Origin: Nitrospiria bacterium
GTDB lineage: Bacteria; Nitrospirota; Nitrospiria; SBBL01; JAADHI01
Assembly (NCBI GenBank): GCA_945787655.1
Contig: CALZIJ010000001.1
Location: forward strand, 1,726-65,725
Reading direction: 5' to 3'
Length of the DNA stretch: 64,000 nt
The position numbers and the translations under genes were made by a program. Shown in pieces: positions 10,652-44,596 of the stretch. The first letter of the stretch is position 1. Every line of letters starts with the position of its first letter. The notes below the pieces were generated by a model. The model was not told the origin of the DNA, ran no database searches, and saw only the letters and a program-made list of their open reading frames with translations.

Positions 10652-11692
10652 TTAGAACTGTACAATACTCGAAAAAATGAACCGTTTCTCATTAAATTCC
10701 ACAAAAGGATCAGTCGACCGGGTCCACATTTCTTCAAGACCACTTCTTAACATAAGATTGGGAAAAGGTTTGTAGACGGCCTCAATGGAGGCCCAATGGT
10801 TTTTATCCCGCCGTCCAAAATGAATGGGATCGCTTTCATCCGCAGAAAATCTCTTGTGCTTGAAGCGGTATCGCATAAGGACCTGCACGGTCGATAAAAC
10901 CTCATACCGGATTTGAATCGAAAAAATGACCGCACGATAGGAAATATCATCTCCCCGGCGACAACGCGCCAGTCCGCAGGTAAAGCCCTCATCCATCAAA
11001 AGATTCCGGCATGTGCGTAATACAGCTTCTGAAGTCAGCGGACACTGAACAACAAGGGTGCCCCTATTGGCCTCGCCCCGTTCTAACGCCAAGTCTGAAG
11101 AAACGGCCCATTGTACATTATCGGTATAAAAAAGGGTCGGCCCCAGGGTCATAATCTGTGAGTCCTTGGCATTAAAGTCCGCGTTGTAATTCAAACGGGT
11201 CCACGAAAAATAGACCCCCGCTTCGCCCCAAGTCATCTCCCTGTCAAGGTACAGGCTGATACTGCTGGAGGACAATTCAAACGGCTGACGGCTCCGATCT
11301 TCTTTGTCTAAAGGGGCCGATGGGGCAAGGGTCAGAAAAGCGCTGAAATAAAATTCATCCTCCAGGGGAGTTTCCAAACCGACTTCGTAAAAATAGTGCG
11401 TTAAGTTTTTATTTTCCCTGTATCGGTTAAGCGCCCCCAGGGCACTAAACATCGTTTCTCCCATTCGTGCATTCAATAAAATACTGGATTCTATAATTTC
11501 ATCGGACACCCTGTTTTCCTTGTCCTGAAAAATATTGTCATCAAAGACCAGTCCAAATTCAATTTCCCCACTCCAGCGGGGCAGGGTTTCATCATCCTCA
11601 AAATAAATTTGCGCGGCAGCCCATGTGGGAAAAAGGAACAAAAGGGCGCCGATAAAAAACAGACCGAACTGGACATCTTTGTTCAAAAACAA
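10652..11692 (-). CDS. predicted outer-membrane beta-barrel protein (uncharacterised)
   Basis: The signal peptide ends in AAAQ. The sequence shows an alternating amphipathic pattern and ends in the OMP-type C-terminal Phe (IVQF). A four-Cys segment is inserted internally. Confidence 0.55.
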   Translation of the reverse strand: MFLNKDVQFGLFFIGALLFLFPTWAAAQIYFEDDETLPRWSGEIEFGLVFDDNIFQDKENRVSDEIIESSILLNARMGETMFSALGALNRYRENKNLTHYFYEVGLETPLEDEFYFSAFLTLAPSAPLDKEDRSRQPFELSSSSISLYLDREMTWGEAGVYFSWTRLNYNADFNAKDSQIMTLGPTLFYTDNVQWAVSSDLALERGEANRGTLVVQCPLTSEAVLRTCRNLLMDEGFTCGLARCRRGDDISYRAVIFSIQIRYEVLSTVQVLMRYRFKHKRFSADESDPIHFGRRDKNHWASIEAVYKPFPNLMLRSGLEEMWTRSTDPFVEFNEKRFIFSSIVQF

Positions 11693-38202: not shown

Positions 38203-40143
38203 ATGGCTCAAAGCCTTATGCAAAAATTTTATGTCACCACCCCCATATATTATGTGAACGACGTACCCCATATCGGACATGCCTACACCACCATTGCAGC
38301 GGATGTGCTCGCCCGATATCATCGTTTGTTGAACGAGAACGTCTTCTTTCTAACCGGTACGGATGAGCACGGACAAAAGGTCGAGCAGGCCGCGAAAAAG
38401 AAAGGGGTCTTGCCTAAAGCACACGCGGATGAACACGTTGTTGGATTTCAATCCCTCTGGAAAAAGCTCAACATCTCCAACGACGATTTTATCCGAACCA
38501 CAGAAGACCGCCATAAAAGAGTGGTCTCTCAGGTTCTGACCCAACTTTGGGAAAAAAAAGAAATCTATGCCGATACCTATACGGGTTGGTACTGTTTGCC
38601 CGATGAACGCTTTTGGACGGAAAAGGAAATTATTGACGGAAAATGTCCCGATTGCCGCCGTCCTGTCGAGCCGCTTTCCGAACGGAATTACTTTTTTAAA
38701 ATGGGACAATACCGTGACCGCCTCAGGCAGCATATTTTAGAGCATAAACACTTCATACAACCTGAAAGCCGCCGGAATGAAGTGTTGGGGTTTTTAGAGA
38801 ATGACCTCAACGACTTGTGTATTTCACGACCGAAACACCGTCTGGAATGGGGCATTCCGCTGCCATTTGACCCGGATTATGTGACTTATGTGTGGTTAGA
38901 TGCCCTTGTGAACTATATTTCCGCGGCAGGCTACCTGAGCACTCCGGATCAATTTGAAAACTGGTGGCCCGCTGATGTGCACCTTGTGGGGAAAGACATC
39001 CTCACCACACATGCCGTGTACTGGATGACCACCCTGATGGCCCTGGATTTACCACTCCCGAAAAAACTTTTTGCCCACGGCTGGTGGACAATAGAAGGTG
39101 AAAAAATGTCTAAAAGCCTGGGAAATGTCGTCAACCCTTCCGAAATGGCAGACACATTTGGCGTGGATGCCTTCCGTTTTTTTCTGCTTCGACAAGTCCC
39201 TTTTGGAAACGACGGCGACTTTTCACAAACAGCCCTGATGAACCGTATTAACAGCGACCTGGCCAATGACGTGGGTAACTTGCTTTCAAGAACACTCACC
39301 ATGCTGGAGCGATACTCAGACGGGTTAACCCCTGTTCGTATTAAAGGTTCTGCACCGGAAGACATTGCGCTTGAGGAAGCCGCCGACACCTTATTCGAAA
39401 AAATAGACAAGAACCTCTCTGATCTTGCATTTGATAAGGCCCTGACTGAAATTTGGCAGGTCATCCGCATTGCCAATCAATACATTGAAAAAGGCGCCCC
39501 CTGGCAACTCGCTAAAAATCCGGAAACAAAAGAACGGCTCCACGTTGTTCTATATTATACGACGGAAGCCATTCACATCGTCTCCTGTCTTATCGCACCC
39601 TTTATGCCTGATGCAGCACAGGAAATGAAACGGCAGTTGGGGTTTTCAAAAAAAACAGAAACACGGCCTCTCAATATGGCTGCACGCTGGGGAAATCTCC
39701 CACCCGGTCTTCCGGTTTCAAAAGGAAAGCCACTTTTTCCCCGTATCCAACCGGAGAAAAAAAAGTCGCCGCCCCAAAAAGTCACACCCAAAAAAAATGA
39801 TGTGCCTGCATCCTTCAAGCCCTCAATTTCAATTGAGGACTTTGCCAAACTCGACCTTCGTGTCGGCATCATCCGATCGGCAGAGAAAATTAAAAAAGCC
39901 AATAAACTGCTGTTACTTCACGTGGATATCGGCACGGAAAACAGACAGGTGGTCGCCGGGATCGCGACCCGCTACACCCCGGAGGAGATCATCGGGAAGG
40001 AAGTGGTCCTCATCGCCAATCTGAAACCCGCCACCATTATGGGCATTGAATCTCAGGGCATGCTGCTCGCAGCAGGCGGAAAAGCCGTCCTCGGGCTCGC
40101 CACATTTACAGAAGAGATCCCGCCAGGCGCGACGGTTCGTTAA
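38203..40143 (+). CDS. metG: methionine--tRNA ligase (with C-terminal tRNA-binding domain)
   Basis: It has PHIGHAYT (HIGH), the zinc knuckle CPDCRRP, KMSKSLGN, and a C-terminal EMAP/Trbp111-like domain (KLDLRVG...LKPATIMGIESQGMLL). Confidence 0.95.
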   Translation: MAQSLMQKFYVTTPIYYVNDVPHIGHAYTTIAADVLARYHRLLNENVFFLTGTDEHGQKVEQAAKKKGVLPKAHADEHVVGFQSLWKKLNISNDDFIRTTEDRHKRVVSQVLTQLWEKKEIYADTYTGWYCLPDERFWTEKEIIDGKCPDCRRPVEPLSERNYFFKMGQYRDRLRQHILEHKHFIQPESRRNEVLGFLENDLNDLCISRPKHRLEWGIPLPFDPDYVTYVWLDALVNYISAAGYLSTPDQFENWWPADVHLVGKDILTTHAVYWMTTLMALDLPLPKKLFAHGWWTIEGEKMSKSLGNVVNPSEMADTFGVDAFRFFLLRQVPFGNDGDFSQTALMNRINSDLANDVGNLLSRTLTMLERYSDGLTPVRIKGSAPEDIALEEAADTLFEKIDKNLSDLAFDKALTEIWQVIRIANQYIEKGAPWQLAKNPETKERLHVVLYYTTEAIHIVSCLIAPFMPDAAQEMKRQLGFSKKTETRPLNMAARWGNLPPGLPVSKGKPLFPRIQPEKKKSPPQKVTPKKNDVPASFKPSISIEDFAKLDLRVGIIRSAEKIKKANKLLLLHVDIGTENRQVVAGIATRYTPEEIIGKEVVLIANLKPATIMGIESQGMLLAAGGKAVLGLATFTEEIPPGATVR

Positions 40144-40213: not shown

Positions 40214-40241
40214 TTGACAGAAGTAAGGTTTTTGGTAACTT
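40214..40241 (+). promoter_or_regulatory. sigma70-like promoter driving the riboswitch leader
   Basis: TTGACA (40214-40219), a 16-nt spacer, then TAACTT (40236-40241). Confidence 0.45.
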
Positions 40242-40247
40242 TAAGTT

Positions 40248-40352
40248 GTCTGGAAAAAGGCAAACCGGTCGAAAGGCCGGGACGCAAAGCCACAAGGCTT
40301 CGTCCACGAGTTGATTGCTTGTGGACATGCCGGTTGGGCCACCGAGGATGCC
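40248..40352 (+). promoter_or_regulatory. c-di-GMP-I (GEMM-I) riboswitch aptamer
   Basis: The first core is GGCAAACC followed by a GAAA-tetraloop hairpin (CCGGTC-GAAA-GGCCGG). The second is GGGACGCAAAGCC followed by a hairpin (CCACAAG...CTTGTGG). Both line up with the V. cholerae Vc2 cores GGCAAACCAUUCGAAAGAGUGGGACGCAAAGCC. Confidence 0.8.
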
Positions 40353-40398
40353 CGAATTACGGAAAAAACCCCGTCACCGAGTATCTTGTTACTGTGTG

Positions 40399-40428
40399 GC
40401 CCATTTCTTAAATGAAATGGGCTTTTTT
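40399..40428 (+). terminator. intrinsic terminator, probable riboswitch expression platform
   Basis: A 9-bp stem forms between GCCCATTTC and GAAATGGGC with a 6-nt loop, followed by TTTTTT. It lies ~45 nt after the aptamer and ~105 nt before the CDS. Confidence 0.75.
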
Positions 40429-40534
40429 ATTGGGGAAACCATCATCTTATTTACAATCGGTTTGAACACCCATGAAATAGCCCTCTATTCACGGCAGGGG
40501 TCACAGCCTGCCTTAATACAGGGGGAAACCATCA

Positions 40535-43204
40535 ATGAAGAAGTATCTTTATCTTTCTGCACTCTTTTTTGCGACCGCAGGGTTGGCGGCTTGCGGCGGA
40601 AGTAGTTCAAGTTCGACCACAACGACGTCAAAAACCGGTCTTTCTTTACCTACAGAAATTTCAGCCGTTCCCACAACCGCTTCAAATACGACGAAAGTTG
40701 GGCTTAAATCCAAATTATCCGCATTACGGGCCGCAACAGATGCGGACACGGATTATTCAAATGCATCGACCACCACATTTGTCAATGAACATACCTTGGA
40801 ACAATTCGCCATTATTGAACAGGTTCTCGGCGCGCTGGGTCAAACACACTATGCCGATGCGAGTAATGTCGGCCAAGGCGCTTATAAAGCCATGGTGGCC
40901 TGGCAAGATGAGCAAAATGGCGTTGAAACCAAATCACTTCAACCCTGGATTGTCCAATCCGATATCATCGTCGAAAATGGCGCTGAAGTGACCCGCGCGC
41001 GGGCCTGGATTGAAGAAGTTGAAGAGGGACAAAAAGAAGTAATCAAAGCAGAATTTAAAATCTATGAAGCTGCTACCCAGGACAGCTCCGGGGCATACAC
41101 CAGCTACGGGGTCTGGACATTAAATGTCAAATTCGGAGACGAAGGCACAGACTTTTTTGCGGCATCCGCAGAAGTGGGTTCCAATGGCGAATCCATCATT
41201 AAACTCCACGAACGCTTCCCGGAAGGGGAAGGTTTTGTTTTTGAAGTGAAAGCCATCTTAAACAAATCCGCTACCAGTGGGTTTGGGAAAGTCTCTTTTC
41301 CAGATTGGGACAGCTGTACAGAACATCCTTGTATGCCGACCGCTGTCGAGGCCAAATATGCCTACAATGCCAACCATTTAGCGGTTCAAAAGGCGGGGGA
41401 ATCCGAACCAACGTTCAAAGACCGGGCGGATATCACAGAAATGACCCATCGTTATGGTTTATTTGACAGCACAACGGGAGATAATCTTTTTAAAACAAAA
41501 TCATTCGGATTCCCGGTTTTCTTTACGGACGACAACGGATTCAGACAGTATGCCTATTACGGGGCCTGGCAAGGCCGTCATGAGCTTTGGGGCGGCGGCG
41601 AAAGCGGCGTGGCTTCCGGAACCGTCGTCACGCGGGATGACCATGGCGGCAGTGAAACGGCTGCCACCTATACCGTCTCTCCTTCCTTTCAGGGAACACT
41701 GACCAAAAGATCTCTGGTCGCCGGGGCATTGGGCGATATTCTGGATATTCCGGTGGAAACCTGGATCAACAAACATTATGATCTTTTCCACGATGGAACA
41801 AACTGGACCTATTGCACGGGATGGATTGATTTTGGCCAGAGTCCTCCTGCGTGTATGAATCATGATGGCTCTTCCGGGTCCTTTGTGAACTTTACCGATT
41901 TTAACAGTCTGGTTGTCGGCGAACAAGATCGCAAGTTTGTCGGTATCGGCCGGTGGGATCAATCACAAAATCAACAAAAAGACTATGTCTATCTCAGTGC
42001 CGACCCTGGCCTCACGGGTTACACCACAGCCGGTTTCTATGAAGCCCAGCACGGCATGGAAGGACTGTCTCCCATTAGTCCGGCAGAAAGACTGACTGAA
42101 ACCAGCGGCACTCAGCTCTGGGTGGATATCGGCGGGTCTATTTATATTCAGTATACCGGCGAATTCAGCGGGCCAACCACAACGACGGGATGGGTTCAAA
42201 AAACCTTGGAAAACTTTGATCAGCGCACCTGGACGCCTGAATTTGCGACCAATGGTGACAGTGCCTTTACCCCGGCACCGGGTCAGGAATACTACATTAA
42301 CAGCAATGGCGCCAATTTCGTGGTAAGGCGGAAAGACAACAGCGGGACCATTTCTGCTAATTCTTATGAAGTGATGGTAGAGCTGCAAAAAACAGCCAAT
42401 CCAAACAACTTCTCTTCCATGCTCCCGACGGGAACGGATTATCTGCGCACCCCTTGGCGCCAGGAAGTCCGTTACACCTTTGTCACCACAACTGGAAGCA
42501 ATTTCCTCACCTTGCAGTATCTTTCGGATGATTCGAATACGCAGGATGTGGATGAAAGTGTAACGCCGACAGTGGTCACCAGCGGTGAGTGGGGCCTTCA
42601 GGCCTATGACGATAACGGGACCCCCAGCGATTTTACAGATGACATGCCGCTTCAGTCAGACGGGACAGGCGTTACTGTAGATGAATGGGGGAATTCTTCC
42701 GATCCGGACATTCGCCCGGTCCAGTTCAACTGGGAATATTCAGAGAATGGCGGCTGGGGCAACCAGAAATTCCTGATCGACGGGGACGGCAATTACGTCT
42801 TGCTGAGCGATCCGGTCCAGTTACAAGCGGTCACTTTGACCAACAATGGCGGGGACTCCAAAACCTTATCCCTGCAATACGATGGCTGGATGCATGGCTT
42901 GCCGAACTTGTTTGAAGATCTTCGCAAAAATGATTTTGTCATGAACGCGACTATTTCTGACAAGATTATTAACATCCCGGCCGGCACCGAAGTCACGGAT
43001 GCAGTGGACACCACCAAGAGCTACCTCATCAAGCCTCTTGAGGTAAGCCAGTTCCTGAATCCGGTGTCAGACCCCGGCGGGCTTGACATCACCGTCGCGG
43101 ATTCAGTCGATCTGTCGAGTGTCCCGGATTTCGTGGAGCATGGCATGGGTGACATCCCCACCGTGACCGTCACGAAATATTCGGAAGGCATTCTGATCGA
43201 ATAG
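40535..43204 (+). CDS. large uncharacterised lipoprotein (889 aa) downstream of the c-di-GMP riboswitch
   Basis: The lipobox is GLAAC-GG, followed by a Ser/Thr-rich linker (SSSSSTTTTS). The RBS is GGGGGAAA. There are no CxxCH or catalytic motifs, and the sequence is rich in Gly, Asp, Thr, Trp and Tyr. Confidence 0.85.
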   Translation: MKKYLYLSALFFATAGLAACGGSSSSSTTTTSKTGLSLPTEISAVPTTASNTTKVGLKSKLSALRAATDADTDYSNASTTTFVNEHTLEQFAIIEQVLGALGQTHYADASNVGQGAYKAMVAWQDEQNGVETKSLQPWIVQSDIIVENGAEVTRARAWIEEVEEGQKEVIKAEFKIYEAATQDSSGAYTSYGVWTLNVKFGDEGTDFFAASAEVGSNGESIIKLHERFPEGEGFVFEVKAILNKSATSGFGKVSFPDWDSCTEHPCMPTAVEAKYAYNANHLAVQKAGESEPTFKDRADITEMTHRYGLFDSTTGDNLFKTKSFGFPVFFTDDNGFRQYAYYGAWQGRHELWGGGESGVASGTVVTRDDHGGSETAATYTVSPSFQGTLTKRSLVAGALGDILDIPVETWINKHYDLFHDGTNWTYCTGWIDFGQSPPACMNHDGSSGSFVNFTDFNSLVVGEQDRKFVGIGRWDQSQNQQKDYVYLSADPGLTGYTTAGFYEAQHGMEGLSPISPAERLTETSGTQLWVDIGGSIYIQYTGEFSGPTTTTGWVQKTLENFDQRTWTPEFATNGDSAFTPAPGQEYYINSNGANFVVRRKDNSGTISANSYEVMVELQKTANPNNFSSMLPTGTDYLRTPWRQEVRYTFVTTTGSNFLTLQYLSDDSNTQDVDESVTPTVVTSGEWGLQAYDDNGTPSDFTDDMPLQSDGTGVTVDEWGNSSDPDIRPVQFNWEYSENGGWGNQKFLIDGDGNYVLLSDPVQLQAVTLTNNGGDSKTLSLQYDGWMHGLPNLFEDLRKNDFVMNATISDKIINIPAGTEVTDAVDTTKSYLIKPLEVSQFLNPVSDPGGLDITVADSVDLSSVPDFVEHGMGDIPTVTVTKYSEGILIE

Positions 43205-43243
43205 TCTCCTTCCTCGCGGGGTTTTACCGCGTCGAAATAAAAA

Positions 43244-43270
43244 GGGGGTGCAGAAATGCATCCCCTTTTT
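43244..43270 (+). terminator. rho-independent terminator after the 889-aa gene
   Basis: GGGGGTGCA-GAAA-TGCATCCCC forms a stem with one G-U pair, followed by TTTTT. Confidence 0.7.
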
Positions 43271-43336
43271 ATTTGCCTCATCCCCTTGACTTCAAAAGGA
43301 GGGCTGTCTATAGTTTTTAATTTTGCTTGGGTGAAT

Positions 43337-44596
43337 ATGTCAAAAATCAAGGCCCTCAAAGGGTTTAAGGACCTGATTCCAGGAGAATCAGAACACTGGG
43401 AAGTCGTGGCTGATATGGTTCGGGATACCTTTAAGGCCTTTGGTTTTTCACCCATCCGCACTCCGATTCTGGAAAGAACCACCCTCTTTACGCGCAGCAT
43501 TGGCGAAACCACGGACATCGTTGAAAAAGAAATGTACACCTTTGATGACTGGGATAAAAAACCCGTCACACTCCGTCCGGAAGGGACCGCGTCCGTCGTC
43601 CGGGCATTTCTTGAACACCGGCACCTTATGCCTCTATTGCCCGTCAAGTTGTATTACCAGGGCCCGATGTTCCGCCACGAAAGGCCACAGGCCGGACGGC
43701 TTCGGCAATTTCATCAGGTGGGGGCTGAGATACTTGGCGACATCGATCCCAAACAGGATATAGAGCTTCTCTCACTCTTGACCCATTTTTTTGACCGCAT
43801 CGGCCTTCAGGATCTCACTTTAGAAATAAACAGCCTGGGTTGTACCGTTTGTCGGCCCCCGTATCGTAAGGCATTGCAGCAATATTTTAAGACCTCACTT
43901 GAAAACCTTTGCAAAGACTGCAACCGGAGGTTTCACCATAATCCTTTGCGGATTCTGGATTGTAAAAAAGAAACCTGTAAAACCATCACCAAAAATGCGC
44001 CGTCCTCATCGGCCCACCTTTGCGAAGCATGCGAACTCCACTTTAAATCGGTTCGGCAAGGACTGGATGATCTAAAAATTCCCTATCAACATACGAAACA
44101 TTTGGTTCGCGGGTTGGATTATTACACCAAAACGGCTTTTGAAATGACCACGCAAAACCTGGGCGCCCAAAATGCCGTGGCCGCAGGCGGCCGATACGAC
44201 GGACTGGTGGAAGCCCTTGGCGGCCCAAGCACACCGGCGATCGGGTTTGCCCTGGGAATGGAACGCTTGATGCAATTGTTGCCAGAGCAGCCTCATCTTG
44301 CTTCGAACCTTAAGCTTTTTATCGCACCGTTGGGGGAAAATGCGTATCAAAAACTTTTCCCGATACTTTACGCCCTGCGCAAAAAAAATTGCCGCAGTGA
44401 AATTGGTCATCCAGGTGCGGCATTAAAAAAACAAATGAAAACTGCTGACCGCCTTCAGGCAGAATATGTTCTCATTGCAGGTGATCAGGAATTATCCGCC
44501 CAAAAACTGGTATTGCGTAATATGAGTACGAAAAAACAAACCGAAATCGGTTTTTCCAATCTTCTGGACACCCTCTTTTCAGAAATTTTTAAATAA
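43337..44596 (+). CDS. hisS: histidine--tRNA ligase
   Basis: It has KGFKDL, the class II motif 2 (MFRHERPQAGRLRQFHQ) and GGGRYDGL. I chose the start at MSKIKALKG rather than the upstream ATG at 43256. Confidence 0.93.
   Translation: MSKIKALKGFKDLIPGESEHWEVVADMVRDTFKAFGFSPIRTPILERTTLFTRSIGETTDIVEKEMYTFDDWDKKPVTLRPEGTASVVRAFLEHRHLMPLLPVKLYYQGPMFRHERPQAGRLRQFHQVGAEILGDIDPKQDIELLSLLTHFFDRIGLQDLTLEINSLGCTVCRPPYRKALQQYFKTSLENLCKDCNRRFHHNPLRILDCKKETCKTITKNAPSSSAHLCEACELHFKSVRQGLDDLKIPYQHTKHLVRGLDYYTKTAFEMTTQNLGAQNAVAAGGRYDGLVEALGGPSTPAIGFALGMERLMQLLPEQPHLASNLKLFIAPLGENAYQKLFPILYALRKKNCRSEIGHPGAALKKQMKTADRLQAEYVLIAGDQELSAQKLVLRNMSTKKQTEIGFSNLLDTLFSEIFK

Follow-up and report, generated by a model that had tools for sequence, protein, structure and literature searches.

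A predicted c-di-GMP-I OFF riboswitch ahead of a single gene for a large, undescribed all-beta lipoprotein in a Nitrospiria bacterium

Introduction

What does a bacterium gain from placing one solitary gene, for a large lipoprotein resembling nothing described, behind a riboswitch for the second messenger cyclic di-GMP (c-di-GMP), and in which direction does the switch act? The question is raised by a locus in a 64,000-nucleotide stretch of contig CALZIJ010000001.1 (assembly GCA_945787655.1) of a Nitrospiria bacterium, hereafter the window, where a c-di-GMP-I (GEMM-I) aptamer precedes an open reading frame (ORF) of 889 codons. An original prediction, made from the letters alone, described the product as an exported lipoprotein without recognisable domains and the locus as a self-contained c-di-GMP output module. 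Our reading, to which we give a probability of roughly two in three, is that of a single-gene c-di-GMP OFF output unit, the product being an envelope or surface lipoprotein of the low-c-di-GMP state. The elements of the unit, in positions of the window, are as follows.

40214–40219 and 40233–40241, +, sigma-70-type promoter: −35 TTGACA; extended −10 TGgTAACTT (sequence reading and conservation)
40250–40347, +, c-di-GMP-I (GEMM-I) riboswitch aptamer (Rfam gathering-level match, own covariance model, covariation)
40335–40342, +, predicted anti-terminator 5′ strand UGGGCCAC: P3 3′ strand and J3/1 of the aptamer, including C92
40396–40403, +, predicted anti-terminator 3′ strand GUGGCCCA, overlapping the terminator 5′ arm by 6 nucleotides
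40398–40428, +, leader intrinsic terminator GGCCCATTTC-TTAAAT-GAAATGGGCT-T6: 10-bp stem, 6-nucleotide loop; −16.2 kcal/mol, z −5.4
40429–40534, +, remaining 5′ untranslated region (5′UTR): box ATTGGG...CCCAnAAAATAGCyCTC, hairpin GGCAGG/CCTGCC, Shine-Dalgarno sequence GGGGG at 40521–40525
40535–43204, +, coding sequence of the 889-amino-acid lipoprotein (ATG start; ORF listing and translation)
43240–43270, +, intrinsic terminator closing the unit, GGGGGTGCA-GAAA-TGCATCCCC-T5; −20.4 kcal/mol, z −5.35

Results

Aptamer and ligand contacts

At Rfam gathering thresholds, the element at 40250–40347 (+) is the sole riboswitch in the 64-kb window. Its best match is RF03167 (c-di-GMP-I-GGC), with 62.3 bits against a cutoff of 59, a margin of 3.3 bits; a second model of the same clan (CL00126) also exceeds its own cutoff at the site and is suppressed as the lower-scoring of the two. 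With R1, a covariance model that we built from the orthologous aptamers, the window aptamer scores 105.5 bits. Among 22 aligned orthologous aptamers, compensatory changes are seen in 9 of the 22 predicted pairs, and the GAAA tetraloop (GNRA type) of the first hairpin is invariant.

In the structure of the Vc2 aptamer, c-di-GMP is contacted by G20, A47, and C92 (PMC4744006). With Vc2 numbering counted from the G directly 5′ of GCAAACC (40259), and a first hairpin of the same length as in Vc2, so that A47 lies 27 nucleotides further on, the equivalents in the window are G20 at 40259, A47 at 40286, and C92 at 40342. A47 and C92 are invariant in the 22 orthologs and G20 is present in 20 of them. 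Because these canonical contacts are in place, c-di-GMP stays the best ligand call despite the variant label of the top Rfam match, and we infer it to be the ligand from the contact residues.

The variant label itself is a near tie between sister models, with the defining base of the variant absent. We take the name GGC to denote positions 20, 47, and 92, on our reading of the RF03167 consensus; to our knowledge, the ligand of this variant is not established. At position 47, the RF03167 consensus (ACGCGAAGC) has G, whereas the window and all 22 aligned orthologs have A (ACGCAAAGC), and on this base the reading as a true GGC specificity variant was rejected. Twelve orthologous loci were scanned with Rfam: seven match RF01051 best (56–72 bits, cutoff 35) and the remaining five RF03167 (61–64 bits, margins of 2–5 bits). 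For annotation this calls for caution, as clan competition names orthologous aptamers c-di-GMP-I in one genome and "GGC variant" in another, none of them having the variant's defining base.

Two aptamers of the set, both from groundwater Nitrospirae, differ at ligand-contact position 20 (alignment A2, column 12): C in L018 (4765–4872) and A in L019 (3470–3577). A20 is the signature of the GEMM-Ib riboswitches of Geobacter, which are selective for cyclic AMP-GMP (c-AMP-GMP), and ligand specificity may have shifted within the ortholog set at these two loci.

Expression platform and switch direction

The leader terminator, which as RNA reads GGCCCAUUUC-UUAAAU-GAAAUGGGCU-U6, has 100% of cells paired in 20 orthologous leaders and is present in about 21 of 24 leaders. 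When the nascent leader is folded without the terminator 3′ arm, UGGGCCAC pairs with GUGGCCCA (−28.2 kcal/mol, z −3.9). This anti-terminator has 95% of cells paired in the 20 leaders, compared with 26–46% when the partner strand is slid, and it has compensatory changes (CG to UA or the reverse in five sequences, AU to GC or the reverse in seven) amounting to 12 doubly compensated cells. As the two compensating positions are unpaired inside the aptamer, this covariation speaks specifically for the anti-terminator.

The leader thus combines a downstream terminator with a mutually exclusive helix between the aptamer 3′ strand and the terminator 5′ arm, which is what defines an OFF platform. A bound aptamer would withhold the anti-terminator strand, so that the terminator forms and transcription ends, the classical OFF layout. 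From these pairings the switch is predicted to be OFF, with c-di-GMP causing termination and the gene expressed at low c-di-GMP. The product would then belong to the low-c-di-GMP state, a point against its being a biofilm adhesin. The view of the locus as a self-contained c-di-GMP output module therefore holds as far as the unit and the canonical contacts are concerned; the biofilm or adhesion role that it implied does not agree with a platform predicted to be OFF.

The 5′UTR 3′ of the leader terminator is conserved as well (alignment A5, ten orthologous leaders), with the GGCAGG/CCTGCC hairpin just ahead of the Shine-Dalgarno sequence. RNAalifold on the ten leaders pairs the terminator 3′ arm and U-tract (GGGCUUUUUU) with a downstream AAAAAUAGCCC; no covariation was found in the RNAalifold structure of this post-terminator region in the ten leaders.

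Linkage of riboswitch and gene

Homologs were collected from one genome per GTDB species, by which 110 relatives were found and 79 loci retrieved (L001–L079). Of the 24 Nitrospirota loci with upstream sequence, 22 have an aptamer scoring 93–114 bits with R1 on the same strand, 80–340 nucleotides 5′ of the homolog; the ortholog of Ca. Manganitrophus noduliformans Mn-1, a cultured Mn(II) oxidiser, is preceded by an aptamer of 110 bits. Outside Nitrospirota, an aptamer was found at one locus of 53, in a gammaproteobacterium (L026), as a canonical RF01051 match of 64 bits. The negative result with R1 at non-Nitrospirota loci is meaningful, because R1 detects unrelated high-GC GEMM-I elements at 61–82 bits, and full Rfam scans of 27 non-Nitrospirota loci gave no other riboswitch class.

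The reverse test, an exact-pattern metagenome scan for the aptamer core, gave 33 loci, 17 of which score at least 96 bits and are of the window's subtype. A family gene follows in 13 of these 17, and two contigs are too short to judge (13/15 evaluable); some metagenome contigs duplicate genome loci, e.g., L084, which is the L006 contig. At the other two subtype loci (at least 96 bits), the next gene encodes a PilX_N-type pilin (L094, 3038–4494) or a YkuD_2 L,D-transpeptidase (L112, 753–1716); both genes may belong to the same regulon among related organisms.

The original prediction had proposed looking for GEMM elements ahead of homologs in other genomes, and held that it would fail if homologs were never linked to c-di-GMP elements; with 22 of 24 evaluable Nitrospirota loci and the one gammaproteobacterial locus, the linkage is found and that case clearly does not apply.

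Three further observations were made on these aptamers and their surroundings. The Nitrospiria metagenome-assembled genome (MAG) of L009 has two identical aptamers (1032–1139 and 1304–1411), 272 nucleotides apart, ahead of the homolog; as the conserved promoter is found at the first only, the two form a tandem riboswitch in a single leader. On four metagenome contigs (L093, L095, L096, L110), GEMM-I aptamers that belong to another lineage lie 5′ of small radical-SAM proteins with QueE-like N-termini, the L093 protein, which was checked, matching Radical_SAM and Fer4_12; QueE is 7-carboxy-7-deazaguanine synthase, and genes of this kind are an unusual target class for a c-di-GMP riboswitch. At 10654–10952 of L001 (Manganitrophaceae), a few kb from the family gene, there is a 96.5-bit Rfam match to 5_ureB_sRNA (RF02514); urease genes are nearby in the syntenic region of M. 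noduliformans, and the match may just reflect ureB coding sequence.

Gene and transcription unit

The ORF at 40535–43204 is confirmed as a real, stand-alone lipoprotein gene with its own promoter, riboswitch, and terminator. It is real because 322 close relatives of full length, with 46–67% identity, were found, all named "hypothetical" or "lipoprotein" and none with a Pfam domain; it is monocistronic because it is flanked by metG and hisS, ends in its own terminator, and is followed by a separate hisS promoter. The features around it are as follows.

38203–40143, metG (methionyl-tRNA synthetase), upstream flank
43286–43314, hisS promoter TTGACT-17-TATAGT, a promoter-like site 3′ of the lipoprotein-gene terminator
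43337–44596, hisS (histidyl-tRNA synthetase), downstream flank

The promoter of the unit ends just ahead of the aptamer, so that the implied transcription start lies a few nucleotides 5′ of it. The sequence CTTGACA-N14/15-TTTGGTAnCTT recurs 5′ of the aptamer in most orthologous leaders; the site was missed by a consensus scanner because its −10 hexamer matches at just three of six positions. All the parts of the monocistronic unit that the original prediction named have thus been located. Beyond metG lies an M23 peptidase gene, beyond hisS genes for Hsp20 and FtsH; the window MetG is 74–80% identical to MetG of Nitrospirota and Manganitrophaceae MAGs.

Protein sequence, export, and structure

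Two features of the protein are needed in what follows.

Residues 1–19, +, signal peptide, with the predicted lipidation site Cys20 at 40592–40594 (lipobox in the translation)
40646–40672, +, motif LPTEISAVP, residues 38–46, nearly invariant, inside the low-complexity Gly/Ser/Thr tether

The N-terminus reads MKKYLYLSALFFATAGLAAC|GG and continues with SSSSSTTTTS; its lipobox LAAC satisfies the pattern [LVI][ASTG][GA]C at the end of the signal peptide, with Cys20. Of 119 full-length family members, 111 have a lipobox; their +2 residue is Asp in one case and Gly, Asn, or Ser in 109; the eight members that fail the pattern were inspected and mostly have an atypical box or a truncated start. Cys20 is conserved in at least 90% of the family, and the 20 residues after the +2 position are about 70% Gly, Ser, or Thr. 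Taken together, these features support an exported, lipid-anchored lipoprotein. In Escherichia coli, the +2 residue, next to the lipidated cysteine, directs the membrane destination, and by this rule the family residues suggest the outer membrane. Claims of an exported lipoprotein and of a Ser/Thr tether are thereby supported.

Cysteines occur in the window protein only at positions 20, 261, 266, 427, and 440, so that there is no CXXCH motif, as had been predicted; the two short pairs (261/266 and 427/440), noted at the outset, are conserved family-wide. The mature protein is high in Thr, Gly, Ser, and Asp. Invariant motifs of the family are YGAWQGRHxxW (342–352) and DGWMHG (783–788), together with many invariant Trp, Tyr, Asp, and Glu residues.

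AlphaFold2, run on a 47-sequence alignment, returned, with good confidence, an almost purely beta model with a predicted local distance difference test score (pLDDT) of 83.3 and a predicted template modelling score (pTM) of 0.75, in agreement with the all-beta composition suggested earlier. Confidence falls markedly (pLDDT 67) when the N-terminal module is predicted by itself, which argues for one interlocked body and not beads on a string. The LPTEISAVP motif has moderate confidence in the model (pLDDT about 75), as if it might dock onto the body or serve as a recognition peptide.

A search for known relatives upheld the absence of recognisable domains, with no significant sequence, profile, or fold match to any Pfam, NCBIfam, or PDB family. 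No Pfam or NCBIfam match above cutoff was obtained on the window protein; Pfam on all 47 aligned members gave nothing, and PDB sequence and profile searches gave nothing for the full length or the N-module. With Foldseek, the full model had no significant match in PDB or BFVD, the top labels being an inconsistent set of barrels, propellers, cocoons, and jelly rolls, and nothing significant was found with the N-module alone; every fold assignment was rejected on these grounds. On 19 distant or differently built relatives, Pfam found only CHB_HEX_C_1 modules in one, where there are three of this chitobiase type, and a collagen repeat in another.

Family and hosts

An exhaustive search of 1.84 billion cluster representatives places the family in 251 clusters at 50% identity. 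Nitrospirota account for 26 of the 79 loci, including Ca. Manganitrophus and Manganitrophaceae; the others are from Gammaproteobacteria (Ca. Tenderia, Chromatiaceae, Thiotrichaceae, Pseudomonadales), Desulfobacterota, Acidobacteriota, and Myxococcota. The hosts are virtually all uncultured MAGs, and no ordinary isolate genomes were noticed among L001–L079. The family is conserved, undescribed, and all but confined to hard-to-culture lineages rich in lithoautotrophs, chiefly uncultured Nitrospirota, Gammaproteobacteria, and Desulfobacterota.

For many hosts the setting is lithoautotrophic or electroactive (Ca. Manganitrophus, Ca. Tenderia, "Biocath_Gamma", FO_M and FCS_M MAGs, groundwater Nitrospirae, and an Olavius symbiont). 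Two nearby or tandem paralogs of about 50% identity occur at L001, L003, L017, L037, L058, and L070, and in Ca. Manganitrophus SA1 as LLH30_00870 and LLH30_00875; since one aptamer was found per locus, such paralogs may be regulated differently.

Genomic neighbours

No conserved operon partner was found, the best recurring neighbours being present at 5–13 of the 79 loci. Directly 3′ of the family gene at L045, L046, L048, L063, and L070, all from Desulfobacterota or Pseudomonadales, lies a gene for an outer-membrane beta-barrel of about 350 amino acids (Pfam Pom, PF17251), with a 4-nucleotide overlap at L070; this suggests a lipoprotein–barrel pair in these lineages and fits an outer-membrane context. 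Several riboswitch-less homologs are adjoined by genes of c-di-GMP turnover or for response regulators, encoding GGDEF-EAL proteins (L046, L063, L064, L078), a REC-GAF-HD_5 protein (L055), or a sigma-54 activator (L070), and sigma-54-like promoter sites lie 5′ of 6 of 48 such homologs against about 1.7 expected, a weak enrichment. These neighbours hint that protein-based control replaces the RNA switch at riboswitch-less homologs.

Discussion

The unit could work in the following way. The conserved promoter would drive a leader RNA that opens with a canonical-type GEMM-I aptamer. With c-di-GMP bound, the aptamer would keep its P3 3′ strand and C92, the GGCCCAUUUC...GAAAUGGGCU-U6 hairpin would form, and transcription would stop before the gene; at low c-di-GMP, UGGGCCAC would pair with GUGGCCCA, the terminator would be disrupted, and the 889-amino-acid lipoprotein would be made. 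The product would be exported and lipidated on Cys20, held on a flexible Gly/Ser/Thr tether and probably anchored in the outer membrane, and would fold as one large all-beta body of an undescribed family. It would be a factor for the envelope or surface at low c-di-GMP, be that a planktonic, non-matrix, or dispersal state. For its activity our best, and speculative, guess is the binding or remodelling of an extracellular polymer or another bulky ligand, not adhesion; hints at glycans and the surface are the CHB_HEX_C_1 modules in one distant homolog and the invariant residues rich in Trp, Tyr, Asp, and Glu.

Other explanations start from the same data. Adhesins are common among c-di-GMP-induced outputs, surface proteins are activated by some GEMM-I elements, e.g., Vc1-GbpA (PMC4744006), and the product is a large, tethered, surface-type lipoprotein rich in Thr, Gly, and Asp, all of which would suit an ON switch and a biofilm adhesin or matrix component induced by c-di-GMP. 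We hold this to be unlikely: the sole conserved alternative pairing, that of the aptamer 3′ strand with the terminator 5′ arm, is of the classical OFF kind and covaries, and folding of the nascent leader gave no helix by which a bound aptamer could disrupt the terminator. Nor do we expect the aptamer to be a specificity variant (c-di-GMP-I-GGC or c-AMP-GMP-type GEMM-Ib) that senses something other than c-di-GMP. RF03167 is the best match of the window aptamer (62.3 bits, cutoff 59) and of five orthologs, and position 20 differs in two orthologs (C in L018, A in L019), yet the G47 of its consensus ACGCGAAGC is A (ACGCAAAGC) in the window and 22 orthologs, C92 is invariant and G20 replaced in just two orthologs, seven loci go to RF01051 (56–72 bits, cutoff 35), and the margins of RF03167 are just 2–5 bits; the idea is accordingly improbable.

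What the product does is open to similar argument. Ca. Manganitrophaceae, Ca. Tenderia, MAGs of biocathode communities, and Desulfobulbaceae are over-represented among the hosts, and in Geobacter GEMM-I-type riboswitches control outer-surface electron-transfer lipoproteins, which would favour a part in lithotrophic extracellular electron uptake or mineral contact, such as the handling of Mn(II) or Mn oxide at the surface. Against this, neither a haem motif (CXXCH) nor an obvious metal site is present in the protein, the gene is surrounded by housekeeping genes and not respiratory clusters, it is not among the shared candidate genes of the Manganitrophaceae comparative-genomics paper, and the family also occurs in MAGs of Acidobacteriota, Pseudomonadales, and Myxococcota, so we give such a role a low chance. 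Lower still is that of a protein, in the periplasm or at the surface, that carries or binds a lipid or hydrophobic ligand and is built as a large partial beta-barrel with a cavity. It is evoked by faint, recurring Foldseek labels for the N-terminal beta-meander (Osh4/Osh6 ORD barrels, START domains, lipovitellin, haemophore), but these labels are all non-significant (E at least 0.08, TM at most 0.25, probability at most 0.3) and mixed with propellers and Tc-toxin cocoons, and the sub-domain model is modest (pLDDT 67).

Several points weigh against the OFF-unit reading or parts of it. The top Rfam label of the aptamer is the variant class RF03167. A direction predicted from sequence can fail, as the c-di-GMP-I riboswitch Bc1 binds its ligand yet shows no response in vivo (PMC11218506). 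The conserved 5′UTR element after the terminator may be a second regulatory or stabilising layer, and the +2 rule, established in E. coli, may not apply to Nitrospirota. The Pfam, NCBIfam, PDB, and Foldseek searches gave no relative, by fold or by sequence, that would back any activity, and the associations with Pom and CHB_HEX_C_1 are limited to a few loci.

A bolder version of the single-gene OFF unit can be put forward as a tentative idea, with small odds of being right: the protein would be a new fold and, in Mn(II)-oxidising Nitrospirota, the main c-di-GMP output gated by a riboswitch. It would be a surface lipoprotein made at low c-di-GMP only, for a step of lifestyle peculiar to these mineral-encrusting lithoautotrophs, and in electrode-oxidising and cable-type bacteria its relatives would have an equal role, with proteins exerting the control. 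If so, the step might be, e.g., the shedding or remodelling of a coat of Mn oxide or polymer, or the first contact with a solid substrate.

In the literature searched, this is the first concrete c-di-GMP output found for Ca. Manganitrophaceae, and it comes with an RNA mechanism and a predicted sign (OFF). The tight linkage of riboswitch and gene offers a handle on a protein beyond the reach of present genetics in these organisms, as in vitro assays are possible with the RNA and the protein can be made in another host.

Comparison with known systems

The closest relatives of the RNA are the c-di-GMP-I riboswitches of RF01051 (Vibrio cholerae Vc2 and Vc1), with which it shares the two-hairpin aptamer, the GAAA loop of the first hairpin, the GCAAAC...GGGACGCAAAGC core, the G20/A47/C92 contacts, and a place in the leader, 5′ of a gene whose product is exported or located at the surface; RF01051 is matched at 56–72 bits by orthologous aptamers. 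It differs in that the window copy scores slightly better with RF03167, in its extended distal P3 stem, and in its origin from Nitrospirota, for which no report of a c-di-GMP riboswitch was found in the literature searched. RF03167, the GGC variant, is the best Rfam model for the window and five orthologs and has sequence features of P3 in common with them, whereas its name-giving G47 is A in the window and 22 orthologs, and other orthologs go to RF01051.

With respect to mechanism, Cd1 of Clostridioides difficile is an OFF-type c-di-GMP-I riboswitch ahead of the flagellar operon. As in terminating OFF switches of this type, the 5′ arm of the terminator can instead pair with the aptamer 3′ strand, and premature termination is predicted. 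The target in the window, unlike that of Cd1, is a single orphan lipoprotein gene and not a motility operon, its direction is predicted from sequence, and about 110 nucleotides of conserved 5′UTR follow the terminator.

The GEMM-Ib riboswitches of Geobacter, which respond to c-AMP-GMP and control outer-surface cytochrome lipoproteins, are similar in that an element of GEMM-I fold stands before a lone gene whose product is a large lipoprotein of the outer envelope, and in that the bacterium transforms metals; the window aptamer has G at position 20 and not A, which among the orthologs is found in L019 only, and the window protein has no haem-binding motifs.

The nearest labelled proteins are named "hypothetical protein" or "Lipoprotein", e.g., WP_168057954.1 of Ca. 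Manganitrophus noduliformans. Entries of this type are homologous over the full length (about 50% identity), also have a lipobox, and are preceded by the same riboswitch; they have no Pfam or NCBIfam model, PDB relative, or significant Foldseek neighbour; no mention of the gene or the riboswitch was found in the Manganitrophaceae genomics paper. The kind of system, a GEMM-I riboswitch ahead of a surface-protein gene, is already well known and the protein family is undescribed: with proteins of about 850 amino acids, about 250 clusters at 50% identity, and no Pfam model or detectable structural neighbour, it could become a new family entry and a target for structure determination.

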